The notes under the pieces were generated by a model. The model was not told where the DNA came from. It searched no databases and saw only the letters and a program-made list of their open reading frames with translations. Of a stretch of DNA of 50,439 nt, positions 1,148 through 26,971 are shown piece by piece (the stretch's first letter is position 1; each line of letters opens with the position of its first letter). This DNA comes from an uncultured Candidatus Saccharibacteria bacterium (GTDB lineage: Bacteria; Patescibacteriota; Doudnabacteria; UBA920). A program made the translations under genes and the position numbers. The DNA is taken from contig CAYJQY010000007.1 in the NCBI GenBank assembly GCA_964372905.1, positions 5,229 through 55,667 on the forward strand. Reading direction: 5' to 3'.

Positions 1148-3820
1148 ATGAAAAAACTGATACTTTGGTTCGATGAAATTGGCAAAAAAGATGTAGGGAT
1201 TGTCGGCGGCAAGAACGCCAATTTGGGCGAGATGTACCACCATCTTACCGCCGGCGACGGCAAAACTTTTCCTAAAGAAAAAATCAAGGTACCGTATGGA
1301 TTTGCCATAACCGCCGAAGCCTACCGCTTTTTTATTCGCTCCAACAAGCTCGACCACAAAATCAAGCAAGATTTGCGCGGCCTCAACACTAGAAACATCC
1401 GCGACTTGGAGAAGCGCGGGCAGGCCGTGCGCGACCTCATATTGTCGGCAAAATTCCCGACGGAATTGGCCCAGCAAATCATCACCGCCTACCAAAAACT
1501 GGCCAAGCACTATCGCACCACCACGGCTAAACTAGACGTGGCTGTGCGCTCTTCGGCCACGGCTGAAGATTTGCCCAACGCTTCGTTTGCCGGCCAGCAG
1601 GAAACCTATCTCAACATTCGCGGAGAAAACGAAGTCCTGGAGTCAGTAAAAAAAGGCTTTGCCTCGCTGTTTACCAACCGCGCCATTTCCTACCGCCACG
1701 ACACGGGCTTTGACCATTTCAACGTGGCGCTGTCCGTGGCCGTGCAGAAAATGGTGCGCTCCGACCGCGGCTCATCCGGCGTAATGTTTACTTTAGATAC
1801 GGAAAGCGGCTTTCGCGATGCTATTATCATCAATGCCAGTTATGGCTTGGGCGAGTACGTGGTGGCCGGCATCGTTAATCCCGATGAATTCGTTATATTT
1901 AAGCCAAGTTTAGCCAGAGGATTTAACGCTATCATCAGCAAAAAATTAGGCAGCAAGGAAAAAAAGCTAATTTATGGGATCGATGGCAGCAAGCCGACAA
2001 AAGAGGTCTTAGTTTCGCCGGCCGACCGCCAGCGCTTTGTGCTAACCGAAAAGCACATTTTACAGTTGGCTCGCTGGGGCATGATCATTGAAAATCATTA
2101 TAATCGACCCATGGATATTGAATGGGCTTATGACGGAGCAACGCAAGAACTGTATTTGCTCCAGGCCCGTCCCGAAACCGTGGAGGCGCGAAAACAGCAG
2201 GGCGTGGTGCTGGAAGAGTATCGGCTGCAGCTATCAAACAAGAACGGCAGAAGCGGCAAGGGCGGCGGAAGGGAAAAGCCCGAAACAGGTCAAGGCGGCG
2301 CAAAGAGCGCCAAGGCCGCCGAGCGGAGCAAGAATGCCGCGCCAAAAGTTTTAGTGCGCGGCGTGGCTTGCGGCGCCAAAATCGGCCAGGGCAAAGTCCA
2401 TTTTATAAAAGACGCCTCCCAGATTGCCGAATTCAAGAAAGGCGAGGTGCTGGTTACGGAAATTACCGATCCGGACTGGGAGCCCATTATGAAAATCGCA
2501 GCAGCCATTGTTACGGACTTTGGCGGGCGCACTTCCCATGCCGCGATTGTTTCAAGAGAACTAGGCATTCCGGCCGTGGTCGGCTGCGCCGACGCCACAA
2601 AAATCCTCAAAACCGGCAAAGAGGTAACAGTATCCTGCGCCGAAGGCGAGGTGGGCAAAGTTTACGAAGGCCTCCTGCCGTTCAAAATCGAACGGCATGA
2701 CCTGAAAAACTTCAAGCCGCCCAAAACCGAAGTCAAGATGATTGTGGCTGACCCGGAGCTGGTGTTTGGCTTTGCCCAAATCCCCCATCGCGGGGTGGGG
2801 CTGGCGCGCGAGGAGTTCATCATTTCCAATTACGTCAAAATCCATCCGAATGCGCTTATAAATTATAAATCGATAAAAGATAAAGCCCTGAAAAAGCAGA
2901 TTGATGACTTAACGCGCGGCTACTCAAGCAAAACCGGCTTCTACGTGGAAAAACTGGCTTACGGGATTGCCATGATTGCCGCGGCGTATTATCCCTACGA
3001 AGTGGTGTTAAGATTTTCCGACTTCAAGAGCAACGAGTACCGCAATTTAATCGGCGGCGCGCTGTATGAGCCGGTAGAGGAAAACCCCATGCTCGGCTGG
3101 CGCGGCGCCTCGCGCTATTATGACCCCAAATTTGCCCAAGCTTTTGCCCTGGAATGCCAGGCGGTCAAAAGAGTGCGCGAGGACATGGGTCTGTGGAATT
3201 TAAAGGTGATGATCCCATTCTGCCGCACGCCCGAGGAAGGGCGCAAAGTGCTGGAAATTATGAAACGGCACGGGCTGCCGCGGGCGGGACACCAAGCGGG
3301 CCGCCGGACTGGCCGTAACTTCGCAGGCCGGGACAAGGCCGACCGGACCAAAGGCGCCATGCTCAAAGTTAAAGGCCGCTACGATACCGTAGTGCTGTAT
3401 TCGGGACTTGAAGTTTTGGTGATGGCTGAAGTTCCCTCCAACGTTTTGCAGGCCGAGGAGTTTGCTAAAATTTTTGATGCGTTTTCTATTGGCTCAAACG
3501 ACTTAACCCAGCTCACCTTAGGGCTGGATCGGGACTCCGGGCTAATCGCCCACATTGGCAGCGAGCGCAACGCTTCGGTGAAGCGCTTAATCCATGAGCT
3601 GATTTTAGTGGCTCACAAAAACGGGAAAAAGGTGGGGATCTGCGGCCAGGGGCCGTCGGACTTCCCTGACTTTGGGGAATTTTTGGTGCGCGAGGGTATT
3701 GACTCGATTTCCATCAATCCCGATACGGTGCTTAAAGCCACGCTGAAGATAAAGGCAGTGGAGCAACAGCTCGCCAAAGGTCAACGCCAGCAGGACAAAA
3801 AGGGCGTGGCATTGCTATAG
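1148..3820 (+). CDS. ppsA: Phosphoenolpyruvate synthase (pyruvate, water dikinase) with two low-complexity inserts
   Basis: 890-aa ORF. N-terminus is MKKLILWFDEIGKKDVGIVGGKNANLGEM. Swivel phosphohistidine region is TDPDWEPIMK..GGRTSHAAIVSRELGIPAVVG. C-terminal PEP-utilising barrel has FSIGSNDLTQLTLGLDRDSG. Confidence 0.92.
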   Translation: MKKLILWFDEIGKKDVGIVGGKNANLGEMYHHLTAGDGKTFPKEKIKVPYGFAITAEAYRFFIRSNKLDHKIKQDLRGLNTRNIRDLEKRGQAVRDLILSAKFPTELAQQIITAYQKLAKHYRTTTAKLDVAVRSSATAEDLPNASFAGQQETYLNIRGENEVLESVKKGFASLFTNRAISYRHDTGFDHFNVALSVAVQKMVRSDRGSSGVMFTLDTESGFRDAIIINASYGLGEYVVAGIVNPDEFVIFKPSLARGFNAIISKKLGSKEKKLIYGIDGSKPTKEVLVSPADRQRFVLTEKHILQLARWGMIIENHYNRPMDIEWAYDGATQELYLLQARPETVEARKQQGVVLEEYRLQLSNKNGRSGKGGGREKPETGQGGAKSAKAAERSKNAAPKVLVRGVACGAKIGQGKVHFIKDASQIAEFKKGEVLVTEITDPDWEPIMKIAAAIVTDFGGRTSHAAIVSRELGIPAVVGCADATKILKTGKEVTVSCAEGEVGKVYEGLLPFKIERHDLKNFKPPKTEVKMIVADPELVFGFAQIPHRGVGLAREEFIISNYVKIHPNALINYKSIKDKALKKQIDDLTRGYSSKTGFYVEKLAYGIAMIAAAYYPYEVVLRFSDFKSNEYRNLIGGALYEPVEENPMLGWRGASRYYDPKFAQAFALECQAVKRVREDMGLWNLKVMIPFCRTPEEGRKVLEIMKRHGLPRAGHQAGRRTGRNFAGRDKADRTKGAMLKVKGRYDTVVLYSGLEVLVMAEVPSNVLQAEEFAKIFDAFSIGSNDLTQLTLGLDRDSGLIAHIGSERNASVKRLIHELILVAHKNGKKVGICGQGPSDFPDFGEFLVREGIDSISINPDTVLKATLKIKAVEQQLAKGQRQQDKKGVALL

Positions 3821-4051
3821 CGTCAAGGAGAAAATTTTACGATTTTTTGGGGATTACTTTTTGATGCAGCTTGGGCAATGAAATTAGGGTGATTTGCTGC
3901 GCGGCGGGGCGGAAATAAAATCTTTCTAAAGAAAGGATAAAGGAATGGCGAAGTTTGCGTTTGATTGGCCGCAAACTATACCCTATCATGCATTCATCAA
4001 GCTATTAACTAATCTTTATCAGCAAAATAAAGATTGCGTCAAACAAAATTT

Positions 4052-4726
4052 ATGAGAATTTTAGTGGTGGACGATGAAAAAGAAATCAGGGATTTTATCA
4101 AAAGCAGTCTGGTGGCCGAAGGGTTTACCGTAGATGTTACCGGCGAGGGCGAGCGGGCCTCGTTTTTGGCCCGCACCAATGAATACGATTTAATTGTGCT
4201 CGACTATGTCCTGCCTGTTATGAGCGGCCTGGAGGTCTGCCACGACATCCGGAAAGGAGGCAAGACCATGCCCATAATCATGCTGTCGGTGGAATCAGAC
4301 ACCAAGGCGAAAATCAAGCTGCTGTCCAGCGGGGCAGACGATTATGTAACCAAGCCGTTCGCGCTGGAGGAGTTGCTGGCCAGGATCCGCGCGCTGTTGC
4401 GCCGGCCAAAACCCATAACGCCCGATGTGCTAAGAATACAGGATTTGTTTGTGGATATGCCCCGGCACACTGTGCGGCGGGCCGGGCAGACAATTTATCT
4501 GACCCGCAAGGAATTTGAGCTGCTGGAATATCTCATGCGAAACCGCGGCGTAGTCCTAACCCGCGCGATGATTATGGAGCACGTCTGGGACGTGCAGGCC
4601 GATGTGTTTTCCAACACGATAGAAACTCACATCCTAAACTTGCGGCGCAAAATTGATCGGGACGCCAAGAGCAAGCTTATCCACACCGTGCCCGGGAGGG
4701 GCTATAAAATTGACGATACTGATTGA
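4052..4726 (+). CDS. OmpR/PhoB-family response regulator (REC + winged-helix)
   Basis: MRILVVDDEKEIRDF..DLIVLDYVLPVMSG..VTKPF receiver, followed by LTRKEFELLEYLMRN...VPGRGYKI winged helix. The track ORF starts at a TTG (4034), but the ATG at 4052 gives the canonical N-terminus. Confidence 0.9.
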   Translation: MRILVVDDEKEIRDFIKSSLVAEGFTVDVTGEGERASFLARTNEYDLIVLDYVLPVMSGLEVCHDIRKGGKTMPIIMLSVESDTKAKIKLLSSGADDYVTKPFALEELLARIRALLRRPKPITPDVLRIQDLFVDMPRHTVRRAGQTIYLTRKEFELLEYLMRNRGVVLTRAMIMEHVWDVQADVFSNTIETHILNLRRKIDRDAKSKLIHTVPGRGYKIDDTD

Positions 4727-5070
4727 AAGTATTGGGGATTTGGCCCCGAAAATTTTAGAAACATTCTGATTCTTCTTTAAAATTCCTTGATGGCCTCTAC
4801 GCTATACTGGTTGCGTACCCAAGCTGGCTAGTCTCCCGAGTCGGCTACAGAGTATACTTAGGCCAGGAGTCGAGGCAAAAGTACCATATCATTAATATCA
4901 TTACGTCTATGGACCAAATCGTTCAAAACTTATTGTGCCAATCGTCAATACGAAGTTTGCCATCGGTCGATGCGCTTATCAATTTGACGAGCCAATATTA
5001 CCCTTGGAGTGGAGAGGCACAATAATATTGTAGCCAACCAGCTAAATAATATTTATAAGTCAAGCTTGTC

Positions 5071-6516
5071 ATGGCTAATCTTCTCGAGATTTTTAACCGG
5101 GGCGCGGGCTGGCTCTGGTTAAAATGTATCGAACCCAAATCAACAAATGAAGATATAAGACGAAGAGAATTTATTTTAAACATTATTCTCTCATCATCAA
5201 TATTTTTATTGTTGATCCTTGACAGTGTAATACTGTACGACTCTGTGACCATGAGGGAAAACTATCGAGGAATTTCTTTTCCTGCTTTTTCCTCTATCAT
5301 CATGGCGTTTGGCTTATTGCTGGCTCTATCGCGGAAGGGCCAATCCGTACTTGCTTCATACCTTCTCGTTGCAATTTACTTTGTCAGCGTCAGTTACAGC
5401 AGCTACCGGTGGGGTATTGAACTGCCAATTTTGCTGTTAAGCTACAGTTTAGTCATTATTATCGCCAGCATTTTGGTTAGTACCAAATTTGGATTCTTGA
5501 TTACTTTTTTGTGCGCGGCAACTATCGTCACGCTTGGCTTTCTCGAAACCACTCATAATATATCTCCGGATCTAACTTGGAAAACCAGCTCGCTGCGGTT
5601 AGGCAACGCGGTGGAATTTGCATCGATTTTGTTTTTGACCATGGTAATCTCCTGGCTGTCGAATCGGGAAATTGAGAAATCGCTCGGTCGGGCCCGCACT
5701 TCAGAGGAGGCCTTGCGCCAAGAACGCGACTTGCTGGAAATCAAAGTAGAACAGCGCACGATGGAATTAAAACAGCTCCAGGTAGAGCGTATTTCGCAAC
5801 TTTACCGCTTTGCCGAGTTTGGCCGTCTGGCTTCCGGTTTGTTCCATGATCTCATAAATCCGCTGGCGGCATTGTCGCTCCATGTTGACAAGCTTATTCA
5901 ACAACCCAACATACGAGCGAATGAAACCAAACAGTATCTCGAACGCGCTGTCAACTTAACTAAGAGAATGGACAACTTCATGCGCGGTGTGAGTAAACAA
6001 ATTCAAAACCGCGAACTTAACTTGTTGTTCTCGCCATCGGAGGAAATTGAGCAAGTCGTTCAAATTCTCGACTACAAAGCTCGTCGGGCTGGTGTGCGGC
6101 TCGTCTGCCGCATACCCGATCAACCTATCCAAAATTTTGGTAATCCTCTGAAATTCCACCAGCTAATTGCCAACCTGGTATCTAACGCTATTGACGCCTA
6201 TGAGTCAATCAAACCGTCGAGTTTCCAAACAAGAACTGTCACTATATCCTTGGCACAATGCGATAATGAAACTTGTATCGTGGTGACTGATCAGGGTGCA
6301 GGCATGGCGCCAGAGTTAGTAGATAAAATTTTTGAGCCCTTTTTTACCACCAAACATCCGCATAAGGGTACGGGTATCGGATTATCTACCACGAAAGATA
6401 TTGTCGAAAAGCACTTTGGCGGACGGATTTCAGTGGCCAGCGAAGTTGCTAAAGGAACCTCGTTCACGATTAAGTTTCCCAAAAGAGCATCTAGTATCTC
6501 GAAAATTGGCAGTTAA
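5071..6516 (+). CDS. Sensor histidine kinase with multi-pass membrane-embedded N-terminal sensor
   Basis: About six hydrophobic helices in the first ~200 aa, then a coiled-coil linker. H-box FGRLASGLFHDLINPL, N-box LVSNAIDA, G-boxes DQGAGM and GTGIGLS. Visibly AT-richer than neighbouring genes (not computed). Confidence 0.88.
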   Translation: MANLLEIFNRGAGWLWLKCIEPKSTNEDIRRREFILNIILSSSIFLLLILDSVILYDSVTMRENYRGISFPAFSSIIMAFGLLLALSRKGQSVLASYLLVAIYFVSVSYSSYRWGIELPILLLSYSLVIIIASILVSTKFGFLITFLCAATIVTLGFLETTHNISPDLTWKTSSLRLGNAVEFASILFLTMVISWLSNREIEKSLGRARTSEEALRQERDLLEIKVEQRTMELKQLQVERISQLYRFAEFGRLASGLFHDLINPLAALSLHVDKLIQQPNIRANETKQYLERAVNLTKRMDNFMRGVSKQIQNRELNLLFSPSEEIEQVVQILDYKARRAGVRLVCRIPDQPIQNFGNPLKFHQLIANLVSNAIDAYESIKPSSFQTRTVTISLAQCDNETCIVVTDQGAGMAPELVDKIFEPFFTTKHPHKGTGIGLSTTKDIVEKHFGGRISVASEVAKGTSFTIKFPKRASSISKIGS

Positions 6517-6533: not shown

Positions 6534-8768
6534 ATGGCTAACATTCTCATCCGCGAGGCCGCGGGCTGTTTAAGCGAGGTCCAAAAAAGTGAAAGAGGCA
6601 TTATAAGCTTATCATCACGAAACCAGAACTTTGACTGTTTTCGCACCTATCTCACAACTTTTTCGACTTCCACAATTCTTAATTGCCTCGACGGACTGGA
6701 AGTAAATCTGAATATTAGCACCCTTACGATCAAGATTAAAGAAAAGTCAGCTAAATTTCTCCTCTCCCAAAAAAGCCCTCAATGGTCCTTCAACTATTGG
6801 GCCCGGCAGTCGCCGGAATATAAAACCCTGCCTTACCCCGATGACGCCGACGATACTTTTACCGCGCTAGCCGCACTTACGCAATACAACCCCGATCTCC
6901 TCGATCCCTCTGCAATGGCGAAAATCACCCAGTTGTTAATTAGCATCGAAACCGAGCCTGGCGGGCCTTACCGCACCTGGTTTGTGCCGGCAACTAGCGC
7001 AGAAGTGTGGCGCGACGTGGATCTTGCCCCAAACAGCGCCATTGCCTATTTCCTCCAGCTCCAAAAAGTCCGCCTGCCCAAGCTCCTGGCCTGGCTGGAC
7101 GGCCAAATTCTGGCGGGCAACTTTAGCTCGCGCTACTATCCTTTTGAATATCCCATTTTGTATTTTCTCTCGCGCCTGGACGGACTGGAACATCAACAGC
7201 TCATTGTGGAGCGGCTGAAACATCATTTGCAAGCGGATGAATCGGGAGAATCAATAAACATGCTGGAGGCCGGGCTCACAGCCAGCGCCCTGGCCAATGG
7301 CGGCGCGCCCGCCTCTGAAATCAAACCCGCCGTGGACATGATTGAAAAACAATACGCGCTTAACCACTGGCAACCCTTTGCCTTCTGCCTCGATCCGGCT
7401 ATAAACGGCCAAACCCACTATCACGGCTCGAGCGCGCTCACCGCGGCCATAGTTTTGGAGGCGCTGGCTAAATATCAAAATTTGCTGGAGCGGCAGCGGG
7501 GGCGCAGACAGGACAATCGCGGGCATGAGCATGGCGGACAAGACAGCGGCAACCCTGATGCTTCTCACCAAGGTTCCTTTCGTCCTTCCGAAGACTCACT
7601 TCATAAAACGATCCGCCAAAAAGTTACGGCTCTAGCCGACGCCGCCTGCCAAAAGCTCGACCCGCCCCTGCGCCAGCAAGCCCAAACCGTGCTGGCCCAA
7701 ATGCTCAAGCAAGATAAATCGCACTCTATTATTCTTTTGCCCCAGCTGTTTCGCCAGGCGCTCGGCCGCGGCAATGAATCACGCGCTAACGCGTCCCGCG
7801 GCGCCGCGGGACGAGGCGCCGCGTCCGCCAGCGCCGCATCTGAACAGGCCTTCCCCCTCACCGACGAGCTCATGATCCGTCTCGGCCTGGCCCAGCTATA
7901 CGGCTGGTGCGCCTTCTCAACTTTTGACGATGTAATTGACGCGCAAAAATCTCCGAGCGACCTGCCCGCAGCCATGCTTTTTCTGGAGTGGTTCTTGGAT
8001 GGATATCACACCATTGCCGATAACTATCTGGCCAACAATCTTTCCGCCCATCGCGCCGCAAAACAACTCGTGGCCCGATATGTCCAAGCCACCACTTCTG
8101 CTTACGCCCGGGAAATATCTGACTACAGAATTCCCGTGCGCGACAACATCATTTCCATTCCCGCCCGCTTCCTCTCTATCCCCACCCGCTTCCCCAATTT
8201 TAAAGATGCTACTCACCTGGCCGACCGCAGCCTGGGCCACGCCCTGGCCCCGATCATCATCTTGAGTCTTCTTGGCCACAAAAAAGATTCAGCCCCGGTC
8301 CTGGCCACCGAGAATTTTTTCCGCCATTATCTGGCTGCCCGCCAACTCCACGACGACGCTCACGACTGGCGTGAGGACCTGGCCGGCGGCCGGATTACGC
8401 CGGTTACTGCTTTGCTGATGAACTCCTGGCGCACCAACTTTAATAAGACTTCAATAAAACTTGATATAGACCTTCCTCAACTTCATGAGTTATTTTGGAA
8501 TAATTTGATGGGAATCGTATCCCAAAGCATCCATGCGCGCGCAACCCAAGCCCGCGCCGCGCTTAGCGGCGCTGTTCTCAACGATGCCGCGGGCGCAACG
8601 CTAGACAACCTCGCCCTGCCCCACGGTAATTCCCATCAAACCAATTTTCTCGAACATCCCGAGCTGCTTACCAATTTACTTATCCCGCTCGAACGCGGCG
8701 CCAACCAGGCCCTGACCGAGCGCGACAACATCAAACTATTTATGCAAAACTTCAGCCCCAAAACCTGA
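6534..8768 (+). CDS. Two-domain isoprenoid-enzyme-like fusion: N-terminal terpene-cyclase/prenyltransferase alpha-alpha toroid-like domain + C-terminal squalene/phytoene-synthase-like domain
   Basis: 744-aa ORF starting 17 nt after the kinase stop. N-terminal half has YPDDADDTFTALAAL (DxDDT-type class II cyclase motif, nt 6840-6857) and QW-like segments (FLLSQKSPQWSFNYW, ETEPGGPYRTW). C-terminal half has LYGWCAFSTFDDVIDAQ (nt 7926-7940) and ARQLHDDAHDWREDLAGGRITP (nt 8352-8366), 137 aa apart. These resemble the two Asp-rich motifs of CrtB/SQS-family enzymes (YAWCRHCDDVIDDQ; NIARDIVDDAHAGRCYLP). Confidence 0.55.
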   Translation: MANILIREAAGCLSEVQKSERGIISLSSRNQNFDCFRTYLTTFSTSTILNCLDGLEVNLNISTLTIKIKEKSAKFLLSQKSPQWSFNYWARQSPEYKTLPYPDDADDTFTALAALTQYNPDLLDPSAMAKITQLLISIETEPGGPYRTWFVPATSAEVWRDVDLAPNSAIAYFLQLQKVRLPKLLAWLDGQILAGNFSSRYYPFEYPILYFLSRLDGLEHQQLIVERLKHHLQADESGESINMLEAGLTASALANGGAPASEIKPAVDMIEKQYALNHWQPFAFCLDPAINGQTHYHGSSALTAAIVLEALAKYQNLLERQRGRRQDNRGHEHGGQDSGNPDASHQGSFRPSEDSLHKTIRQKVTALADAACQKLDPPLRQQAQTVLAQMLKQDKSHSIILLPQLFRQALGRGNESRANASRGAAGRGAASASAASEQAFPLTDELMIRLGLAQLYGWCAFSTFDDVIDAQKSPSDLPAAMLFLEWFLDGYHTIADNYLANNLSAHRAAKQLVARYVQATTSAYAREISDYRIPVRDNIISIPARFLSIPTRFPNFKDATHLADRSLGHALAPIIILSLLGHKKDSAPVLATENFFRHYLAARQLHDDAHDWREDLAGGRITPVTALLMNSWRTNFNKTSIKLDIDLPQLHELFWNNLMGIVSQSIHARATQARAALSGAVLNDAAGATLDNLALPHGNSHQTNFLEHPELLTNLLIPLERGANQALTERDNIKLFMQNFSPKT

Positions 8769-8984: not shown

Positions 8985-9017
8985 GCCGGTGAACATTCGT
9001 TCACCGGCCTTTCTCTT
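8985..9017 (+). terminator. Rho-independent-type terminator
   Basis: Perfect 10-bp stem GCCGGTGAAC / GTTCACCGGC (8985-8994, 8999-9008) with loop ATTC, followed by CTTTCTCTT. Confidence 0.6.
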
Positions 9018-9102: not shown

Positions 9103-9966
9103 ATGCTCCTCGTCTCCCCCAATTTCAGCGACCTGTTCACCCCTAATATTGAAATCAAGAAATTCCCGGACGGGGAAAGCTATGTTCGCATTCCCATGCT
9201 TGAGTCCTGCGCCGGCCAGAACGTTACTATTCTCCATCGCCTCTACCCCGACCAGAACCAATCGCTGTTCGAACTCTTGCTTATTGTCGATGAGCTGACC
9301 TTCAATGACTGCAAAGTCACCGTAGTCAGCCCCTACCTGCCCTATTCGCGCCAGGACAAAAAAGTTCTGGAAGGGGAAATCCCCGGCGGCAAAGTCGTCT
9401 GCAAACTTCTGGCCCAGGCCGGCTGCAAACAACTCATTACGCTTGACTGCCATTTTTTGAAACAAGAAGGCCAGTTTACCCACGCCGACCTGCCTATCAA
9501 AAATATTTCTATGAACAGTCAACTCATCGATTATGCTAAGGAACAACTTTTTGGCGGCGACTCCTGTGAAATTATCGCTCCGGATCAGGGCGCCAGCTAC
9601 ATGGTCAAAAAACAAGGCGGCCAGGCCATGACCAAAACGCGCGAGGGCTACTCCACTGGCGGCGCCATTATTTCCCGCGACGTGGAAAAAATGGAAGGTC
9701 AGGTTGATGTCCACGGCAAAAATGTCCTTTTATTAGATGATATGATCAGCACCGGCTCAACCATGCTCAAGGCCATTGAGCGCATGCGCGAGCATGGCGC
9801 CAAAAAAATCGCCTGCGCCGCCACTCACGGCTTATTCTTGGGCAATTCTTTAGATAAACTTGAAGCCTTGTGCGACGGCGTTTTTGTCACCGACTCCATT
9901 CCCGGGCCAGCCGCCAAAGTCTCTATCAAACCTCTGTTTGACGAGCATATTCAAAAACTTTTGTAA
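9103..9966 (+). CDS. prs: Ribose-phosphate pyrophosphokinase (PRPP synthase)
   Basis: IEIKKFPDGESYVRI, VVSPYLPYSRQDKK, and PRPP-binding loop VLLLDDMISTGSTM. Confidence 0.88.
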   Translation: MLLVSPNFSDLFTPNIEIKKFPDGESYVRIPMLESCAGQNVTILHRLYPDQNQSLFELLLIVDELTFNDCKVTVVSPYLPYSRQDKKVLEGEIPGGKVVCKLLAQAGCKQLITLDCHFLKQEGQFTHADLPIKNISMNSQLIDYAKEQLFGGDSCEIIAPDQGASYMVKKQGGQAMTKTREGYSTGGAIISRDVEKMEGQVDVHGKNVLLLDDMISTGSTMLKAIERMREHGAKKIACAATHGLFLGNSLDKLEALCDGVFVTDSIPGPAAKVSIKPLFDEHIQKLL

Positions 9967-10016
9967 TCGATAATTAACTTGGGCCGGAAAATTTTAGATC
10001 TTGGAAGTATCAGGAG

Positions 10017-10104
10017 GCCGCCGAGCCAGCTCGCCCGGCAAACAGCATTTGCTCCGAGAAACATAAGCGCAACTCTGCTGTTTGCGGGCAACTGGCGAGG
10101 CGGC
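10017..10104. other. Long imperfect GC-rich inverted repeat (rod-like hairpin, ~30-nt arms)
   Basis: GCCGCCGAGCCAGCTCGCCCGGCAAACAGCA (10017-10047) pairs with TGCTGTTTGCGGGCAACTGGCGAGGCGGC (10076-10104). Pairing includes a perfect CAAACAGCA/TGCTGTTTG segment. The element lies 55 nt upstream of the pyrE ATG. Confidence 0.5.
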
Positions 10105-10158
10105 TGACGACGAGGACGCTGACAAGTACCTTAATTTTTCTGGCCTGATCTCAAAAGC

Positions 10159-10794
10159 ATGGACGCTACCAACGAAGTCGAAAAAATCTTGAGGGAATCC
10201 GGCGCGCTCATTACCGACAGCCACATTATCGGCACCTCCGGCCGCCACATGAGCGTGTACATCAACAAAGATACAGTCTACCCGCACACGACCCAGGCCT
10301 CGCGGGTCGGCGAGCTGTTTGCCGAAAAATATAAAGACGCGGGTATTGAAGTCGTGGTCGGCCCGGCGCTCGGCGGCATTATTTTATCGCAGTGGACAGC
10401 GTATCATCTTTCCAAACTTTTAGGCCACGAGGTTTTGGGCTGCTACACGGAAAAAACGCCGGAAAATGACCAAATGTTCAAGCGCGGCTATGACCAACTG
10501 GTCAAAGGCAAGCGGGCTTTGATTGTCGAGGACTTCACCACCACGGGCGGCTCGGTGCGCAAGGTTGTGGACGCGGTCAAGCTGGCTGGCGGCAAAGTTA
10601 TGGCCGTGTGCGTCATGGCCAACCGCGATCCCGAACGCGTGACCTCGGAAGTCATCGGCGCGCCGTTCTCGGCGCTGGCCGTCATCAAAGCTCACAGTTA
10701 TGATCCGGCCGAGTGCCCGCTGTGCAAAGAAGGCATAACCATCAACACCTCGGTCGGCCACGGCAAACAATTTTTGGAGCAGCAGGGCAAGTAG
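10159..10794 (+). CDS. pyrE: Orotate phosphoribosyltransferase-type PRTase
   Basis: GTSGRHMSVYINKD 5-phosphate/hood region, PRPP loop ALIVEDFTTTGGS, and position between prs and pyrF/pyrD. Confidence 0.75.
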   Translation: MDATNEVEKILRESGALITDSHIIGTSGRHMSVYINKDTVYPHTTQASRVGELFAEKYKDAGIEVVVGPALGGIILSQWTAYHLSKLLGHEVLGCYTEKTPENDQMFKRGYDQLVKGKRALIVEDFTTTGGSVRKVVDAVKLAGGKVMAVCVMANRDPERVTSEVIGAPFSALAVIKAHSYDPAECPLCKEGITINTSVGHGKQFLEQQGK

Positions 10795-10830
10795 CAATAA
10801 GCCAAGCAGGGTAATAAATAGTTAACATCT

Positions 10831-10858
10831 TAATATTCAACCGTCTGGTTGAATATTA
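10831..10858. other. Perfect 12-bp inverted repeat (hairpin or operator) after pyrE
   Basis: TAATATTCAACC gtct GGTTGAATATTA. No T-tract follows, so its role as a terminator is uncertain. Confidence 0.4.
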
Positions 10859-10881
10859 GAACCTACATTTAAACAGATAAG

Positions 10882-11448
10882 ATGAAGTACAAAATCGGGG
10901 TTTTTGGGTCAGCGGTGTCAGAATCTGCCCCAGTGCGGCGCAAGGCAGCTATCATAGGCAAAGAATTGGCCCGATACAAATGCATTGTTATCACCGGAGC
11001 TTGTTCCGGCCTGCCCTATGCCGCCGCGTACGAAGCGGCACAAAACGGAAGCGAAGTTTGGGGTTTCTCGCCCGAAGCTAATTTTAAGGGCCAGCAAAAA
11101 TTCACGCCCGATGACGACAATTCCATTTACAAAAAACTCATCTACACCCCGAAAAGCTTACCTATGTTTGGCAATAGCCAGGTGCGCAAAAAATACCGTA
11201 ATGTCATCTCCACCGCCACCTGCGACGCCGGCATCATTGTTGCGGGCCGCTGGGGCACACTGAACGAAGTTACCAACCTCTACGACATGGCCAAAGTCAT
11301 TGGCGTGCTCACTGGCAGCGGCGGCATCAGCGACGAAATGAAACGGCTCGATAAAAAAATCCGTAAACCCAGCCGCGCCAAATTTATTTTCTCAAGCTCG
11401 CCAAAAACTTTGGTGCAGTCCATCATTAAAGAACTCCAGAAACGTTAA
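10882..11448 (+). CDS. LOG/TIGR00725-like Rossmann-fold protein (putative nucleotide N-glycosidase / SLOG-type nucleotide-binding protein)
   Basis: IGVFGSA...LGKELARYKCIVITGACSGLPYAAAYEAAQNG, and AGRWGTLNEV matching the LOG PGGxGTxxE motif. Confidence 0.55.
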   Translation: MKYKIGVFGSAVSESAPVRRKAAIIGKELARYKCIVITGACSGLPYAAAYEAAQNGSEVWGFSPEANFKGQQKFTPDDDNSIYKKLIYTPKSLPMFGNSQVRKKYRNVISTATCDAGIIVAGRWGTLNEVTNLYDMAKVIGVLTGSGGISDEMKRLDKKIRKPSRAKFIFSSSPKTLVQSIIKELQKR

Positions 11449-11465
11449 ATCATTATTTACCACTT

Positions 11466-12287
11466 ATGTCGCCGCCAAAATTGCCGCCAAAATTATCCAT
11501 AGAAAAGTACAACCAGCGAGCGGACGCAATTAATTCTTTAGTCTGCGTAGGATTGGATCCGGAATTTGCCAAATTGCCGGATCGTTTTAAGTCCGCCGGG
11601 TTCCCCCAGTTCGAATTCAACAAATATATTATTGATGCCACTTATGCGCATGCCGCGGCCTTTAAGCCCAACGTGGCCTTTTACGAGGCGCGCGGCGATG
11701 CCGGCCTGCGCGAGCTCAAAATGACCATGGATTATTTGCGCGAGCATCATCCCGATATTTTCACCATTTGCGACGCCAAGCGCGGCGACATTGGCAACAC
11801 CAACGCCCAATCCGTAGCGGCTATTTTTGACTTGTTTGGCTTCGATGCCGCCACTGTCCAGCCATATTTAGGCAAAGAAGCCATTTTACCTTTCCTCAAC
11901 CGGACCGATAAAGTTACTATAGTCTTGGTGCGAACCTCCAATCCCGGAGCGGGCGAAATTCAGGATTTGCTTGTTGACGGTAAACCGCTCTGGCAGATCG
12001 TGGCGGAAAAATGCGAACACGAGTGGAATGAACACGGCAATGTCATGCAGGTCATTGGCGCGACTTATCCCAAAGAAATGGAAGTCATCAGAGGAATCGC
12101 CAAAGAAATGACCTTTCTCGTCCCCGGCGTAAGCGCCCAGGGCGGGAAAGTCGAAGCCACCGTAAAAGCCGGCCTCAACTCCGACAAAAAAGGCATGATC
12201 ATCAACTCCTCCCGCGGCATCATTTTTGCTAATGACCCCGGCGCCGAAGCTAAAAAGCTCAAGGAAGAAATAAATCGCCACCGCTAA
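11466..12287 (+). CDS. pyrF: Orotidine 5'-phosphate decarboxylase (long/type 2 form)
   Basis: LVCVGLDPE, catalytic ICDAKRGDIGNT, C-terminal INSSRGI. Confidence 0.88.
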   Translation: MSPPKLPPKLSIEKYNQRADAINSLVCVGLDPEFAKLPDRFKSAGFPQFEFNKYIIDATYAHAAAFKPNVAFYEARGDAGLRELKMTMDYLREHHPDIFTICDAKRGDIGNTNAQSVAAIFDLFGFDAATVQPYLGKEAILPFLNRTDKVTIVLVRTSNPGAGEIQDLLVDGKPLWQIVAEKCEHEWNEHGNVMQVIGATYPKEMEVIRGIAKEMTFLVPGVSAQGGKVEATVKAGLNSDKKGMIINSSRGIIFANDPGAEAKKLKEEINRHR

Positions 12288-12304
12288 CCCGCAGCCAATT
12301 TAGA

Positions 12305-13396
12305 ATGGTACAAATGTACAAACTCATCCGTCCCCTGCTCTTCGCCCAAGACCCCGAAAACATGCACAACCGAGCGCTGACTTTTGGCGAGTGGGCCGCG
12401 CATTCACCCTTGGCCGGGCTTTTTGAAACCTGCTACAAATTTGACGACCCGCGCCTCCACAATAAAGTATTCGGCCTAAACTTCCGCAATCCCGTCAGCA
12501 ATGCTGCCGGGTTTGATAAAAACGCCCATCTGCCCGACTTCCTGCCTCTGCTCAATTTCGGCTTTGTGGAAATCGGCTCGGTTACCGCCCAGCCACGCGA
12601 CGGCAATCCCAAACCCCGCATGTTCCGCCTGGAACAGGACAAGGCCATGATCAACCGCATGGGCCTCAACAACATCGGCGCTGACCGCATGGCGCAGAAG
12701 CTGGCCGGGCGCAAATTCCGAACCCCGCTAGGCATCAACATTGCCAAAACTCACGACCCGAAAATTTTGGGCAATAAAAGCATTGAAGATTTCTGCTACT
12801 CGTTCAAAAAGCTTTACGAATTCTGCGACTACCTCACGCTCAACATCAGCTGCCCTAATACCGCAGAAGGCAAAACCTTTGAAGAAGTTGGGCCCCTGCG
12901 CGCGCTACTTTCGGCCATAAAACCGATTCGGGCTGGGTTTGCCCAGCAGCATCCCGTGCTGTTAAAACTTTCCGTCAGCAATTCTCACCAAATGGTTGAT
13001 GCGATTCTGCAAGCCGGGGAAGAATTTGGGATTGCTGGATATATTATTGGCAACTCGCCCTCGGACCGCGAAAATATGACTACGCCAAAAGAACAGCTGG
13101 AAAAAATCGGCAAAGGCGGCTTGAGCGGCCAGCCCGTCCGGCCGCGAACCACCGAACTGGTCCGCTACGCTTACAGCGTTTTGCGGCGCCCGTGCATTAT
13201 CGCCTGCGGCGGCATCGATTCCGCCAAAAGCGCTTACGAAAACATTCGCGCCGGCGCCTCGCTGGTCCAGCTCTACGCCGGGCTGATTTACGAAGGGCCG
13301 GGACTGGTCAAAAAAATCAACCGGGGGCTGGTTGAATTGCTCAAGCGCGATGGGTTCAAGAATATCGCTGAAGCTGTTGGTGCAGACGTGCGATGA
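12305..13396 (+). CDS. pyrD: Dihydroorotate dehydrogenase, class 2 (quinone)-like
   Basis: N-terminal extension LIRPLLFAQDPENMHNRAL, NPVSNAAGFDKN, LNISCPNT, GGLSGQPVRP, IACGGI. Confidence 0.88.
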   Translation: MVQMYKLIRPLLFAQDPENMHNRALTFGEWAAHSPLAGLFETCYKFDDPRLHNKVFGLNFRNPVSNAAGFDKNAHLPDFLPLLNFGFVEIGSVTAQPRDGNPKPRMFRLEQDKAMINRMGLNNIGADRMAQKLAGRKFRTPLGINIAKTHDPKILGNKSIEDFCYSFKKLYEFCDYLTLNISCPNTAEGKTFEEVGPLRALLSAIKPIRAGFAQQHPVLLKLSVSNSHQMVDAILQAGEEFGIAGYIIGNSPSDRENMTTPKEQLEKIGKGGLSGQPVRPRTTELVRYAYSVLRRPCIIACGGIDSAKSAYENIRAGASLVQLYAGLIYEGPGLVKKINRGLVELLKRDGFKNIAEAVGADVR

Positions 13397-13400: not shown

Positions 13401-14882
13401 TCAAGACGGCTTTATTACCACCGCGCTGCGCTCCGGACCCGTGCCAACTAATAAAATCGGCACACCGACTTTCTCCTCAAGCTTGTTCAAAAAATCTTTG
13501 GCGCCTTGCGGCAAATCTTCCCAGGAGCTGTAGCCATAAATGTTTTCGGGCCAGCAGGCCCAAGCTTCCAAAATCGGTTCCACTTCGGACAGCTGCCGCG
13601 CCGAGGGCAGCTGGCCCGCCGCCAATATCTGCCCCCGAAACTTATAACCCATCACCACGGGAATAGACGGCAAACCAGACAGCATATCAAACCGAGTCAA
13701 AGCTATCCATTTAGGACCATTAATGCGCGTGGCATATTGTAGCCAGGGAATATCTATAAAGCCCACGCTGCGGCCGCGGCCCGTGGTGGCGCCGCGCTCA
13801 TCGCCCAAAACTTGGAAATACTGCGAGAGTTCCGCATGGCCCACCTGCCCTTGCTTTATTTTTTCTAAAGCCGCGGCTAAAAATTCCTTTTTGGCTTCCG
13901 CAGACGTAAATAATTCGGGATGCTCCTTGGCAAAATTTTGGGCCGCAGTACGTTCCCACATTTCCGAGGGAAATGGCCCGCTGCCCACGCGCGTGGGCAA
14001 AGTCTTAGCCACCATCAAAGCCGCGCCAATCTGACTTGGCGGAATGCCGCTGCCAAGTGGCGCGCCAGCAGCCACGGAATTGCCCGATGAAACATACGGA
14101 TAAGTTCCCCAGGTCGAATCCAACCCCGCGGCCTGCGCCCCCTCAAACAAAATTTTCTTTTTCTCTACAAGCTGCCGGCTTAAAAAATACGAAGTATCAA
14201 TAACTTTATCTTTGATTTCTTTGGCCAAGCCGAGCAAGCGGTCAGCCACGGCTTCAGGCGCAGGAATTTCCGCGGCAACCAAACCTGTGGTTTTCATGGC
14301 CTCAAAAATCGGCAAAAAACTCTGATAAAGCAGCGTTAAAGCAGCAACAAACTCCGGCCGGTCAATAAATAAATCCCCGACCACGGGGCTGATGCGGAAT
14401 TTCGGCAAAGCCGCCAGCGGTCCAATGGCTTTGTTGGTAGTGCCAATACGGCTGTTGCCGCGCACCGATTCAAACCAAATTTCCAGCAGACCGTGCCACG
14501 GCGTCCACAACGGCGCCATTTGGTCAATGTAAACCGGTGCGAGCTTGGCTCCTAAAATTTGGGTAATCATTTTGAGCTCTTCCAAAAACAATTCAAGATT
14601 AAAAAATTCCCCGCGCCCCAGCACCGACACTTTGCCCTGGGCCAATCCTGTGGGAATTAAATGGGTCACCACTTTGACTCCCTCATCAGTCATTACGGTA
14701 TGCCCGGCATTGGCCCCGCCGGAAAATCGCACCACCACATCAAAAAAACCCATTACCAGGTCTATGATCTTGCCTTTGCCCTCGTCGCCCCAATTGGCGC
14801 CTACGACTACTACGGTCTGCTCCGAACCAAGGGTTGGCTGGAGGCGGCGATAGAGATCGGTGAGGGACTTGGCTAAAGGCAT
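13401..14882 (-). CDS. purA: Adenylosuccinate synthetase (long form)
   Basis: P-loop VVVVGANWGDEGKGKIID, GANAGHTV, GTTNKAIGP, GATTGRGRSVGFID. Converges on pyrD with only 4 nt between the stops. Confidence 0.9.
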   Translation of the reverse strand: MPLAKSLTDLYRRLQPTLGSEQTVVVVGANWGDEGKGKIIDLVMGFFDVVVRFSGGANAGHTVMTDEGVKVVTHLIPTGLAQGKVSVLGRGEFFNLELFLEELKMITQILGAKLAPVYIDQMAPLWTPWHGLLEIWFESVRGNSRIGTTNKAIGPLAALPKFRISPVVGDLFIDRPEFVAALTLLYQSFLPIFEAMKTTGLVAAEIPAPEAVADRLLGLAKEIKDKVIDTSYFLSRQLVEKKKILFEGAQAAGLDSTWGTYPYVSSGNSVAAGAPLGSGIPPSQIGAALMVAKTLPTRVGSGPFPSEMWERTAAQNFAKEHPELFTSAEAKKEFLAAALEKIKQGQVGHAELSQYFQVLGDERGATTGRGRSVGFIDIPWLQYATRINGPKWIALTRFDMLSGLPSIPVVMGYKFRGQILAAGQLPSARQLSEVEPILEAWACWPENIYGYSSWEDLPQGAKDFLNKLEEKVGVPILLVGTGPERSAVVIKPS

Positions 14883-14884
14883 AA

Positions 14885-16276
14885 TTATAGTTCCGCTAAT
14901 TTTTCCGCTATCCCAGTATAGTTTTCCGGAGTGATTTTTTTAAGTTCTTGTTTGACTTTATCAGCAACATCTAAAGAATCGATAAAATTCTGAAAATCTT
15001 TCATGGTCACTTCTTTGCCCCGCGTCAGTTCTTTCAATTGTTCGTAAGGGGCCGCTGCGCCCTCCCGCCGCAAAACTGTTTGGATGGCTTCGGCAATGAC
15101 TTCGGGATGCTGCTGCAACGCCTCTTTGACTGTGACTTCATCCACAGCGATTTTTTCTAAACCTTTTAGAATGGCTTTATAGGCTATAAGACTGTGAGCA
15201 AATGGCGTGCCCAGACTTCTCAACACCGTAGAATCAGAAAGATCGCGCTGCAACCGCGAGATCGGCAGCTTGCGGCTAAAAAATTCGAACAGAGCATTGG
15301 CAGTGCCTAGGTTGCCTTCCGCATTCTCAAAATCAATGGGATTGATTTTATGCGGCATGGTCGAGGAGCCAATCTCTCCGGGCACTGGCTTTTGGATAAA
15401 CCAGCCGTCGCTGATATATCGCCATAAATCCTGAACCATATCAATCAGAATCGTATTAGAGCGGCGCAGAATATCGCAAAGTTCAGCTATTGAGTCATGC
15501 GATTCGGTTTGATCAGTGATAAGATTGGCATTAATCTTGATGGTCCGGCCTTTATTTAAAATTCCGATAAAGCGTAAGGTAAACTCAACCCAATTAACTT
15601 TTGGATAAGCCGCATAAAGCGCGTGGTAATTGCCGGTGGCGCCATTTAATTTGGCCGACAACTGATGATTTATAAGCTGCTGAAGTTGCCGGTCGAGACG
15701 CGAAGCAAAAACTTTAAACTCTTTGCCAAAAGTCGTGGGCGATGCCGGCTGGCCATGCGTGCGCGCCAATATCGCCGTTGATTTATAATTCTTGGCATTT
15801 TTGTTCAGCTTGGCAACAATTTCAGAAAGCGCGGGAATCATTACTTCGTGCAGCGTGTCGTTCAACATCAAAGCATAAGCCGTATCATTCACGTCATAAG
15901 ACGTTAGTCCAAAATGGACCCACTCCAGCACATCTTTGAGCGATGAACCAGCCAGTTTTTCTTTAATAAAATATTCTACGGCCTTAACGTCGTGATTAGT
16001 GGCGGGAATTTTGCCGTGGCCTTTTAAGTCAAAATCGCTAATTAACTGCGCATCTGCCAAAGTAAAATTTTCATAAAGGCCGCGCAGCAGTTTCTTTTCC
16101 GTCGAGCTAAGTTCCCGCAAATCTACCCCGTCTTCTTCAGACAAGGCTATAAGATACTCGGCCTCAACCATGACGCGATAGTGCATAAGGCCCGACTCAC
16201 TAAAAATAGGAGCCAGCGCTTCCGTGTGTCTCCTATATCGCCCGTCTACGGGGCTGATGGTTTCCAGGGGGGTCAT
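14885..16276 (-). CDS. purB: Adenylosuccinate lyase
   Basis: ISPVDGRYR start, fumarase/lyase signature GSSTMPHKINP, 463 aa. Confidence 0.92.
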   Translation of the reverse strand: MTPLETISPVDGRYRRHTEALAPIFSESGLMHYRVMVEAEYLIALSEEDGVDLRELSSTEKKLLRGLYENFTLADAQLISDFDLKGHGKIPATNHDVKAVEYFIKEKLAGSSLKDVLEWVHFGLTSYDVNDTAYALMLNDTLHEVMIPALSEIVAKLNKNAKNYKSTAILARTHGQPASPTTFGKEFKVFASRLDRQLQQLINHQLSAKLNGATGNYHALYAAYPKVNWVEFTLRFIGILNKGRTIKINANLITDQTESHDSIAELCDILRRSNTILIDMVQDLWRYISDGWFIQKPVPGEIGSSTMPHKINPIDFENAEGNLGTANALFEFFSRKLPISRLQRDLSDSTVLRSLGTPFAHSLIAYKAILKGLEKIAVDEVTVKEALQQHPEVIAEAIQTVLRREGAAAPYEQLKELTRGKEVTMKDFQNFIDSLDVADKVKQELKKITPENYTGIAEKLAEL

Positions 16277-16281
16277 AAAAC

Positions 16282-16575
16282 TTATTCTTCATAAAGCCGG
16301 ACAATGTCTTTGCTTATATAGGACTTTAACCGGAGATTGACGGACTTGTGCGTCAATAAGTCAACTTTCAGCCTCAATTTAGCCTCGAGCTTGTCATTCA
16401 TCTCATTAAATTTAAACAGGCCGATGGGGGTTTTTAGAGTTACCAGCAAGTCTAGATCGCTTTTCTTCCCTGCCGCGCCCCTGGCGGCACTGCCAAAAAC
16501 ATCAGCACGGACCACTCCGTACTGTTTAAAAATTGGCAAAATTTGCCTGCGGATTTTAAGCAGTCTACCGCTCAT
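16282..16575 (-). CDS. MNT-type minimal nucleotidyltransferase (antitoxin-like), no HEPN partner adjacent
   Basis: VFGSAARGAAGKKSDLDLLV matches the GSxxRG..DxD pol-beta-superfamily motif. 97 aa. AT-richer than purB, which starts 5 nt downstream. Confidence 0.8.
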   Translation of the reverse strand: MSGRLLKIRRQILPIFKQYGVVRADVFGSAARGAAGKKSDLDLLVTLKTPIGLFKFNEMNDKLEAKLRLKVDLLTHKSVNLRLKSYISKDIVRLYEE

Positions 16576-16621
16576 ACTTAAATGTTACCAAATTGGCCGC
16601 CAAATGTCTAAAATCGGCCTA

Positions 16622-16654
16622 TTGACTCTCTCTCTCTCTCTGATTTGGTATGGT
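16622..16654 (+). promoter_or_regulatory. Candidate sigma70-type promoter whose spacer is a (CT)n tract
   Basis: TTGACT (16622-16627), a 21-nt spacer made mostly of CT repeats, then extended -10 TGgTATGGT (16646-16654). It lies 34 nt upstream of the SD/ATG of the 16688 ORF. Confidence 0.4.
16626..16641. repeat. (CT)8 dinucleotide microsatellite
   Basis: CTCTCTCTCTCTCTCT read directly. Located in the intergenic spacer between the divergent MNT and receiver-like genes. Confidence 0.95.
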
Positions 16655-16687
16655 GAACTCTGCTCGTAGCCTGAAAGGAGGAAGACT

Positions 16688-17002: not shown

Positions 17003-17017
17003 GGCAGGCTTGCAAAC

Positions 17018-17057
17018 ATGCGCCACGGGGCTCGCTACCTGTGGCGCATGATCATCT
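17018..17057 (+). terminator. Stem-loop terminator candidate between the receiver-like gene and purC
   Basis: ATGCGCCAC (17018-17026) pairs with GTGGCGCAT (17041-17049) across a 14-nt loop, followed by GATCATCTTTTT. Confidence 0.45.
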
Positions 17058-17059
17058 TT

Positions 17060-18034: not shown

Positions 18035-18056
18035 ATAATCCTCTTCTGCCCCGCTT

Positions 18057-19181: not shown

Positions 19182-19184
19182 AAT

Positions 19185-19703: not shown

Positions 19704-19704
19704 G

Positions 19705-26970: not shown

Positions 26971-26971
26971 A

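Follow-up and report, generated by a model that had tools for sequence, protein, structure and literature searches.

A cyclase-first prenyltransferase fusion protein and its candidate tryptophan-peptide signaling cassette in Patescibacteria

Described prenyltransferase-cyclases and ComQ-type circuits

Two groups of described systems come closest to the locus considered here. ChrPC and NctPC are fused prenyltransferase-cyclases that act as peptide maturases (review PMC13290415, citing Hubrich et al. 2024). In ChrPC, a P domain that resembles the trans type of isoprenyl diphosphate synthase (trans-IDS) is combined with an MstE-like monodomain cyclase, and a tryptophan (Trp) is prenylated with C10 to C20 donors, after which the attached chain is cyclized (PMC13290415). 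In the ComQXPA-type circuits, enzymes of the ComQ family, which have the fold of isoprenyl diphosphate synthases (IPPS) and have kept the DDxxD first aspartate-rich motif (FARM), prenylate a short neighboring peptide on its C-proximal Trp, which in StheX is the second residue from the end. In these enzymes, as in the indole prenyltransferase Ord1, the second motif is closely preceded by a Gln that helps to position the indole, and the PalQ cluster includes a histidine kinase. Here, we describe a fusion gene in a stretch of 50,439 nucleotides from an uncultured Candidatus Saccharibacteria bacterium (contig CAYJQY010000007.1, positions 5,229 to 55,667), which as a whole is called the window. An intact open reading frame (ORF) of 744 amino acids at positions 6534 to 8768, on the plus strand like all other window features located below unless a strand is given, encodes a class II terpene cyclase (beta) domain followed by a trans-IPPS-like prenyltransferase domain.

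We propose that this protein is the maturase of a ComQXPA-like peptide-signaling cassette of four genes, encoding a response regulator, a precursor peptide, a polytopic kinase, and the enzyme, which would prenylate and then cyclize on Trp; some genomes add a polyprenyl diphosphate synthase to this set. Arguing by analogy with the systems above, we give this reading a probability of roughly 55%. The fusion protein is a real two-domain terpene enzyme but most likely not a lipid synthase.

The architecture and the proposed chemistry match those of ChrPC, which we could compare by description only. The differences lie in the N-terminal position of the cyclase, in a new family of 32- to 40-amino-acid precursors with a leader of its own, and in the tie of the cassette to a two-component system and its spread across the Candidate Phyla Radiation (CPR)/Patescibacteria. 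Fused prenyltransferase-cyclase maturases and ComQXPA-type circuits are thus each already known, and what appears to be new is that both ideas are joined in one fixed four-gene cassette, with a new precursor family and with retention throughout the CPR. The cyclase-first domain order also appears to be new, with the reservation that the order in ChrPC, known to us from its description, is not confirmed. A preliminary description of the window, made from its sequence, had held that no single-polypeptide arrangement of this kind was described; with ChrPC and NctPC on record (PMC13290415), that statement is outdated in spirit. In the literature consulted, we found no paper linking either the fusion architecture or ComQXPA to the CPR; an earlier mention in Hubrich et al. 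2024 is possible.

With ComQXPA systems (ComQ, StheQ/StheX, and PalQ/PalX/PalP), the locus shares an IPPS-fold prenyltransferase, a peptide with a C-proximal Trp, a polytopic kinase, and a regulator, all in one place. The gene order, however, is regulator-peptide-kinase-enzyme and not comQ-X-P-A, and the regulator is of the OmpR type (Trans_reg_C), whereas ComA is a NarL/LuxR-type regulator. The enzyme itself differs in its second motif, which is a full DDxxD and not the degenerate NDxxx of the ComQ family, in its additional class II cyclase domain, and in the absence of detectable sequence similarity to PF00348 or ComQ.

Two domains of the fusion protein

Residues 1 to 330 (positions 6534 to 7523) form, as judged from profile and structural comparisons, a beta-only class II terpene cyclase domain of the MstE/AsDMS type with predicted activity. 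Around 50 full-length relatives of about 650 amino acids and 30 to 40% identity were found, and the conservation values given here for the fusion protein are based on an alignment of 48 members. When the profile of this alignment was compared with the PDB, the cyclase domain of the bacterial drimenol synthase AsDMS (9mhs/9m7d) was matched with an E value of 5.8e-13 over residues 38 to 309. The family motif PDDLDDT falls on PDDLDTT of AsDMS, so that D106 of the window protein is aligned with D333, the residue changed in the D333N structures. For the N-terminal half, Foldseek returned 9m7e (E value, 1.2e-9), followed by the squalene-hopene cyclase (SHC) 8pak and SsDMS 7xr7. AsDMS is the best match by both profile and structure, and the two share a single alpha/alpha-barrel beta domain with a catalytic DxD(D/T) acid. 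Identity is about 19%, however, the partner domain of AsDMS is a HAD phosphatase in place of the IPPS-like domain found here, and AsDMS acts on free farnesyl diphosphate (FPP), whereas the presumed substrate of the fusion protein is a prenylated peptide. In this last respect MstE, which likewise has a beta-only cyclase domain, offers a precedent, as the prenyl chain on which it acts is one that an aromatic acceptor already carries (non-diphosphate meroterpenoids).

These matches bear out the preliminary description where it read the N-terminal half as a class II cyclase toroid with a functional-looking DxDD motif, and also where it estimated the toroid to be only about half as large as a beta-gamma cyclase, since a beta-only domain is of that size. 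Its QW-like repeats fared less well: the family consensus does contain two QW-like motifs, but these are degenerate in the window protein, where the canonical repeats are barely present and a single weak Q..G.F match was found.

The DxDD general-acid motif D103-D104-A-D106-D107-T108 (positions 6840 to 6857; YPDDADDTFTALAAL, residues 101 to 115) is highly conserved. Invariant in the cyclase half are P102, D103, D104, D107, and T108, the run G143-G144-P145-Y146, and W149, and D106 is conserved in at least 90% of the members. In the C-terminal half, the first Asp-rich motif, D465-D466-V-I-D469, is a FARM-type DDxxD (positions 7926 to 7940; LYGWCAFSTFDDVIDAQ, residues 455 to 471) located at the C-terminal end of a long helix (residues 444 to 468) in the model. 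The second, Q604-L-H-D607-D608-A-H-D611-W612-R-E-D615 (positions 8343 to 8378; QLHDDAHDWREDLAGGRITP, residues 604 to 623), was aligned by hhalign through its QLxDD with the QIxDD of the second aspartate-rich motif (SARM) of polyprenyl synthases encoded next to family members. Invariant in this half are G457, W458, D465, D469, E527, S566, G568, H569, Q604, D607, D611, W612, and D615, while D466, D608, and H610 are each conserved in at least 90%. The three motifs lie where the preliminary description had placed them, with 137 residues between DDVID (465 to 469) and DDAHD (607 to 611), and the residues expected to be catalytic are kept, with D106 on AsDMS D333 and D465, D469, D607, and D611 invariant. 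Because they persist across 48 proteins at 30 to 40% identity, we regard these motifs, on the strength of the alignment, as no chance matches.

The AlphaFold model of the whole protein has a mean per-residue confidence (pLDDT) of 89 and a predicted template modeling score (pTM) of 0.83. Single-sequence searches of Pfam, NCBIfam, and (by phmmer) PDB with the 744-amino-acid protein gave nothing useful. Precomputed annotation assigns PF28380 to five homologues (P0005, P0006, P0040, P0045, and P0051); this apparently newer model was never returned by a Pfam scan of all 48 members, and one or the other domain may already be covered by it.

The C-terminal domain (residues 352 to 744; positions 7587 to 8765) has a trans-IPPS fold resembling ComQ and Ord1, as indicated by a separate model of this domain (pLDDT, 86.8) and by Foldseek. 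All of the 50 best structural matches have the trans-IPPS fold and comprise geranylgeranyl diphosphate (GGPP), octaprenyl, and polyprenyl synthases together with Ord1 (PDB 9v4g-j), which occupies ranks 3, 4, 5, and 7. Ord1 shows the highest identity among these matches (14 to 16%) and has a FARM DDxxD and a Gln adjoining the second motif; it is a stand-alone enzyme, however, that farnesylates free tryptophan. The profile of the C-terminal domain matched nothing but noise among PDB sequences (p14 and Mdm2/4).

The preliminary description had taken this domain for a squalene/phytoene synthase (SQS/PSY). This assignment is not supported: PF00494 (SQS_PSY) matched none of the 48 members at an E value of 0.1 or lower, hhalign against CrtM (query sequence verified against PDB 4e9u) gave a probability of 0.4% and left the proposed motifs unaligned, and no SQS/PSY occurs among the 50 best structural neighbors. 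The resemblance to CrtB that had been noted is that of a shared isoprenoid-synthase superfamily. We also rejected a class I terpene cyclase reading, with D607, D611, and D615 as an NSE/DTE-like triad, as no such cyclase is found among the same 50 neighbors; Terpene_syn_C_2 gave weak matches in four of the 48 members only. An analogy with the Bacillus YtpB/SqhC sesquarterpene pathway was dropped for the same structural reason and in view of the Trp peptide described below.

Probably, the C-terminal domain is not a chain-elongating synthase, as its sequence conservation suggests. It conserves 14 aromatic and four Lys/Arg positions, against three aromatic and seven Lys/Arg positions in the genuine synthases encoded nearby. 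In the 18 neighboring synthases K57, R60, R106, K206, and K272 are invariant and K262 is conserved in at least 85%, and when conservation was compared, neither the GGKRxR loop, nor the RRG after the FARM, nor the KT had an equivalent among the conserved positions of the fusion protein. We base our view on this aromatic-rich, Lys/Arg-poor conservation and on the presence of a separate bona fide synthase in about a quarter of the loci. For Trp-prenylating IPPS-like enzymes, a Gln one turn ahead of an often degenerate second motif is reported. Q604 and D607 are invariant and spaced as Q212 and N215 of StheQ; canonical IPPS share the Gln (Q245), and the second motif here is a full DDxxD.

Peptide gene, cassette, and distribution

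The structural likeness to Ord1 led to ComQ, and the gap of 100 to 400 nucleotides between regulator and kinase genes was therefore inspected for small ORFs. In nearly every locus, this gap contains an ORF of 32 to 40 amino acids. When 1.46 Mb with 23,295 small ORFs were searched with a hidden Markov model (HMM) built from 27 copies, 73 matches were found, and all 73 are located immediately upstream of the cognate kinase gene and on its strand, including at loci in which the kinase gene is inverted. With a refined HMM, the peptide is present in 73 of 75 eligible loci. Its leader reads M-K-E-L-L-K-K-I-L-T-D-K-x-A-R, in which conservation reaches 92% at both L9 and R15. A single Trp is found in 68 of 71 unique peptides, followed by one to six residues up to the C terminus; the spacing from position 16 to this Trp is 16 or 17 residues in 61 of 71, and Pro precedes the Trp in 50 of 72. 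A Shine-Dalgarno sequence lies 11 to 17 nucleotides before the peptide start, and the 7-mer AAAGGAG occurs in 29 of 71 loci, whereas in shuffled sequences no 7-mer occurs in more than 14. One locus (L021:8073-8332) is alone in having regulator, kinase, and fusion genes while a peptide ORF could not be detected between the first two, for which a frameshift, an assembly error, or real loss is possible.

In the window, the candidate precursor peptide is an ORF of 38 amino acids, MDQIVQNLLCQSSIRSLPSVDALINLTSQYYPWSGEAQ, at positions 4909 to 5025, ending 45 nucleotides before the kinase start. It contains R15 and one Trp at the modal spacing of 16 residues. The leader-plus-tail signature, a pattern set up post hoc, is fitted by two of 23,223 background ORFs, namely, the window peptide and one weak true member. 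Independent of any tuned pattern, the mean N-anchored BLOSUM62 score of the window peptide against 66 family peptides is +22.4, compared with -22.4 +/- 7.5 for shuffled versions (z, 6.0; reached by 0 of 5,000), and by this score the peptide comes out on top among 5,684 non-family ORFs of comparable length. We consider it, on these sequence comparisons, a genuine if divergent member of the family. The enzyme of the window is divergent too, with the substitutions N524Y, W526R, and R485E and three inserts.

Before the window peptide gene, positions 4853 to 4874 carry a promoter-like or 5'-untranslated-region (5'-UTR) motif, TATACT-N9-GAGTCGAG, which resembles a family element and whose function is putative. 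If one mismatch is allowed, 24 of 71 loci have the family motif TATAAT-N8-9-AAGGTCGA(A/G), compared with 4.5 expected, and a composite promoter pattern, again defined post hoc, gave 18 matches in 2.9 Mb, of which 10 lie directly upstream of peptide genes, including that of the window. In about a third of the loci, (GAG)TATAAT-N8-9-AAGGTCGA(A/G) is found 26 to 58 nucleotides upstream of the peptide start (for example, L066:8496-8517 and L054:8405-8427), and these loci often have no strong Shine-Dalgarno sequence. In L009 and L016, a second copy of GGGTCT about 9 to 10 nucleotides upstream of the first suggests a direct repeat. The element could be a regulator box, part of the 5'-UTR, or a dedicated promoter together with the start of the transcript.

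Upstream of the peptide gene, the window encodes an OmpR-type response regulator with receiver and winged-helix domains (positions 4034 to 4726; Pfam Response_reg, 1.4e-28, and Trans_reg_C, 1.1e-26). Downstream follows a sensor histidine kinase (positions 5071 to 6516) whose N-terminal 200 or so residues are transmembrane (TM) and precede the DHp and HATPase_c domains (HATPase_c, 6e-26; HisKA weak). The sensor consists of five to six packed TM helices with short loops (hydropathy segments 32 to 62, 67 to 88, 92 to 111, and 113 to 161), which agrees with its earlier characterization as membrane embedded, and the kinase stop is indeed 17 nucleotides from the fusion gene start. The synteny survey covered 83 loci and the window, and 77 loci had enough sequence for the kinase to be assessed. 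A kinase orthologue (E values from 1e-70 to 1e-140) is encoded directly upstream of the fusion gene and on the same strand in 76 of these 77 loci, often overlapping it, and an OmpR-type regulator gene lies upstream of the kinase gene in 58 loci. A bona fide polyprenyl synthase gene is adjacent in 19 of 83 loci and immediately downstream in 14, typically with a 4-nucleotide overlap. No other recurrent gene family was found nearby, none occurring in more than seven of the 83 loci. A variant layout is seen in L003:4650-7451, L029, L059, and L075, where kinase and peptide genes are on the strand opposite the fusion gene, with the peptide gene again located directly before that of the kinase. A divergent polyprenyl synthase gene adjoins the fusion gene in L003 and L075.

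Because the cassette holds every ingredient of the ComQ, PalQ, and ChrPC precedents, we propose a mechanism of three steps. In the first, the DDxxD of the C-terminal domain would bind an allylic prenyl diphosphate (C15 to C20) via Mg2+ and ionize the diphosphate, and the prenyl chain would be transferred to the indole of the single C-proximal Trp of the peptide (W33 in the window), as in ComQ, PalQ, StheQ, and Ord1. In the second, D106 of the DxDD motif in the N-terminal domain would protonate the attached chain at its distal double bond, and the chain would then be folded into a mono- or polycyclic terpenoid, comparable to the action of MstE on non-diphosphate meroterpenoids and of the ChrPC C domain on prenylated peptides. 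Finally, the lipidated peptide would be released and partition into the membrane, where the membrane-embedded sensor of the kinase may detect it and the kinase phosphorylate the OmpR-type regulator, in the manner of ComX, ComP, and ComA.

The preliminary description had suggested a search for the same domain fusion elsewhere. Relatives of the fusion protein are found in 321 species-representative genomes, and the family comprises at least 1,825 representative clusters at an E value of 1e-3 or lower and at least 1,235 at 1e-30 or lower; the best 150 clusters almost always have the fused form of about 650 amino acids. A search of a set of 5.8 billion proteins with the alignment profile, the reach of which is limited by a word prefilter, returned the same 50 or so proteins. 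The genomes are labeled Saccharimonadia, Microgenomates groups, Doudnabacteria, Paceibacterota, CPR2, and other CPR/Patescibacteria, with some generic or implausible labels of metagenome-assembled genomes (MAGs). The window belongs to this radiation as well; those relatives of its TypA that carry a name (71 to 74% identity) come from Doudnabacteria and Patescibacteria. Records titled "uncultured Gammaproteobacteria," "Vitreimonas," "Bacillota," "Methylomirabilota," or "Dormiibacterota" (L013, L015, L018, L026, L028, L030, L031, and others) are probably mis-binned or carry a default taxonomy, given the cassette and the neighboring genes in them. Several proteins of 280 to 400 amino acids (P0057, P0059, P0074, P0087, P0089, and others) comprise the C-terminal domain only and may be contig-end fragments or true stand-alone prenyltransferases.

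Much of bacterial diversity belongs to the CPR, whose members have tiny genomes and live on other microbes to which they attach, and little is known of how they sense their partners or each other. That organisms otherwise shedding most of their biosynthesis keep the cassette, in at least 321 species genomes and at least 1,235 clusters, implies strong selection. Conceivably, the cassette serves cell-cell or symbiont-host signaling across the CPR, with a cyclized-terpenoid Trp peptide pheromone made by the fusion protein and read by the kinase; this would be the first quorum-sensing-type circuit for the radiation and a new class of terpenoid-peptide signal, an extension that we advance tentatively and place somewhat below an even chance. 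If the predicted function of the cassette is borne out, the CPR gain a concrete, testable pair of signaling molecule and receptor, the chemistry of peptide prenylation plus cyclization extends to a new precursor family and phylum, and terpenoid-lipidated peptides become accessible by a compact route that is genetically encoded. The analysis also corrects a hopanoid/squalene-type annotation of proteins labeled "hypothetical" or "prenyltransferase/squalene oxidase repeat-containing."

Alternative readings and minor features of the window

Several observations weigh against a peptide maturase. On the side of the enzyme, no sequence-level link to ComQ or PF00348 was detected, the window protein being without a Pfam match; polyprenyl_synt matches one of the 48 members, at an E value of 0.08; and the hhalign match of the C-terminal domain to the neighboring polyprenyl synthases is weak (probability, 30%) and confined to the surroundings of the second motif. 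Like chain-elongating synthases, the protein has a complete DDxxD there, whereas ComQ and StheQ have a degenerate pseudo-SARM. Furthermore, N524Y, W526R, and R485E are departures of the window protein from its family at three near-invariant positions. On the side of the peptide, the window copy, which comes third among the 774 ORFs of the window with 4.6 bits, is not significant by the HMM, and part of the support for it uses patterns that were defined after the peptide had been seen (the signature and the promoter composite). As for the cassette, no prenyl donor synthase is encoded near the fusion gene in the window and in most loci, neither an exporter nor a leader peptidase is conserved (none in more than seven of the 83 loci), and synteny with a two-component system could reflect regulation of the enzyme and not sensing of its product. 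The comparisons establish the two folds, the conserved motifs, the fusion, the gene order, and a conserved peptide gene preceded by a ribosome-binding site. Every functional step, that is, Trp as the acceptor, donor length, cyclization, processing/export, and sensing by the kinase, is one that we infer.

The alternative that survives best is a terpene synthase with two activities whose substrates are free isoprenoids, in which, as in drimenol synthase or prenyltransferase-cyclase fusions, the IPPS-like domain makes or ionizes a prenyl diphosphate, the class II domain cyclizes it, and the cyclic terpenoid is a membrane lipid or a small-molecule signal. The two-component system would then merely regulate the gene or sense the state of the membrane, and the small ORF would be unrelated. 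Such an enzyme would be in keeping with the full DDxxD form of both Asp-rich motifs, as in true trans-IPPS, with the predominance of GGPP and polyprenyl synthases among the structural neighbors of the C-terminal domain, and with the use of free FPP by AsDMS, the closest solved relative of the N-terminal domain; a neighboring polyprenyl synthase fits substrate supply equally well. Yet the conserved C-proximal-Trp peptide in 73 of 75 loci would be left unexplained, the Lys/Arg set of genuine synthases is not conserved in the aromatic-rich C-terminal domain, PF00348 is undetectable in 47 of 48 members, and a real synthase next door would make a second elongating domain redundant. We regard this main rival as unlikely.

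Much less probable is a protein that is non-catalytic or catalytic in a different way, its toroid being a TED/complement-like binding module and its helical domain a kinase scaffold, for example, a co-sensor or an immunity protein. TED_complement is the commonest weak Pfam match among the members (22 of 48), and complement TED domains occur among the lower-ranked structural matches. However, the residues that do not vary are precisely those that serve terpenoid enzymes as catalytic acid and as metal-binding Asp residues, and the strongest match is an active cyclase domain, that of AsDMS, with the catalytic Asp aligned.

Least credible of all is the combination of an SQS/PSY-like head-to-head domain and an SHC-like domain, envisaged in the preliminary description as the source of a hopanoid-like cyclic triterpenoid with a lipid-sensing kinase, which could draw on a superficial likeness to the Asp-rich regions of CrtB/CrtM, on the presence of DxDD, and on the membrane-embedded sensor, but which is contradicted by the PF00494, CrtM, and structural-neighbor results given above and by a single beta domain in place of the beta-gamma architecture of triterpene cyclases, and which overlooks and leaves unexplained the conserved Trp peptide gene between regulator and kinase. 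As a whole, then, the observation in that description is confirmed, while its interpretation is partly supported. Its statement that the window contains no isoprenoid precursor or prenyl synthase gene also holds.

Both of the low-complexity stretches pointed out earlier in the fusion gene exist (GC, 0.62 and 0.75). They correspond to two window-specific inserts, one in the interdomain linker (residues 334 to 351; positions 7533 to 7586; pLDDT below 50) and one at residues 417 to 440 (positions 7782 to 7853), a low-pLDDT loop composed of an imperfect tandem GC-rich unit. A third, at residues 680 to 702 (positions 8571 to 8639; pLDDT below 50 at 685 to 694), had been missed. All three are absent from 47 of 47 aligned homologues and coincide with the only low-confidence segments of the AlphaFold model. 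Positions 7794 to 7811 in the second insert do form a perfect 18-nucleotide palindrome, which is a by-product of an imperfect tandem unit of about 15 nucleotides with a self-complementary GGCGCC core. We rejected the inserts and the palindrome as functional elements on account of their location in low-pLDDT loops, their restriction to one protein, and their tandem-unit origin. Housekeeping proteins of the window are also long (positions 1148 to 3820, 37362 to 39293, 13401 to 14882, and 24518 to 26302). The phosphoenolpyruvate (PEP)-utilizing enzyme has Gly/Lys/Arg-rich stretches such as NKNGRSGKGGGREKPETGQGGAKSAKAAERSKNAAPK, TypA has 643 amino acids compared with about 613 to 619 in relatives, and PurA and PurH extend about 50 residues beyond their Pfam models. 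Since several housekeeping proteins carry extra length too, low-complexity inserts seem to be a genome-wide habit and no feature particular to the fusion gene.

Downstream of the fusion gene, a terminator-like hairpin at positions 8985 to 9008 (10-bp stem with seven GC pairs and a T-rich tail), which is a consensus match only, may mark the end of the operon. Beyond it lies a near-complete set of genes for de novo purine synthesis (PurA, PurB, PurC, PurM-like, PurE, PurD, PurN, PurF, PurH, PurQ, and PurL) at positions 9103 to 13396 on the plus strand and 13401 to 30792 on the minus strand. Beside these are genes for phosphoribosyl pyrophosphate (PRPP) synthetase, orotidine 5'-monophosphate (OMP) decarboxylase, and dihydroorotate dehydrogenase, followed at some distance by those for glucose-6-phosphate dehydrogenase (G6PD), 6-phosphogluconate dehydrogenase (6PGD), and GTP-dependent PEP carboxykinase (GTP-PEPCK). 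This purine and other biosynthetic complement seems unusually rich for a CPR genome.

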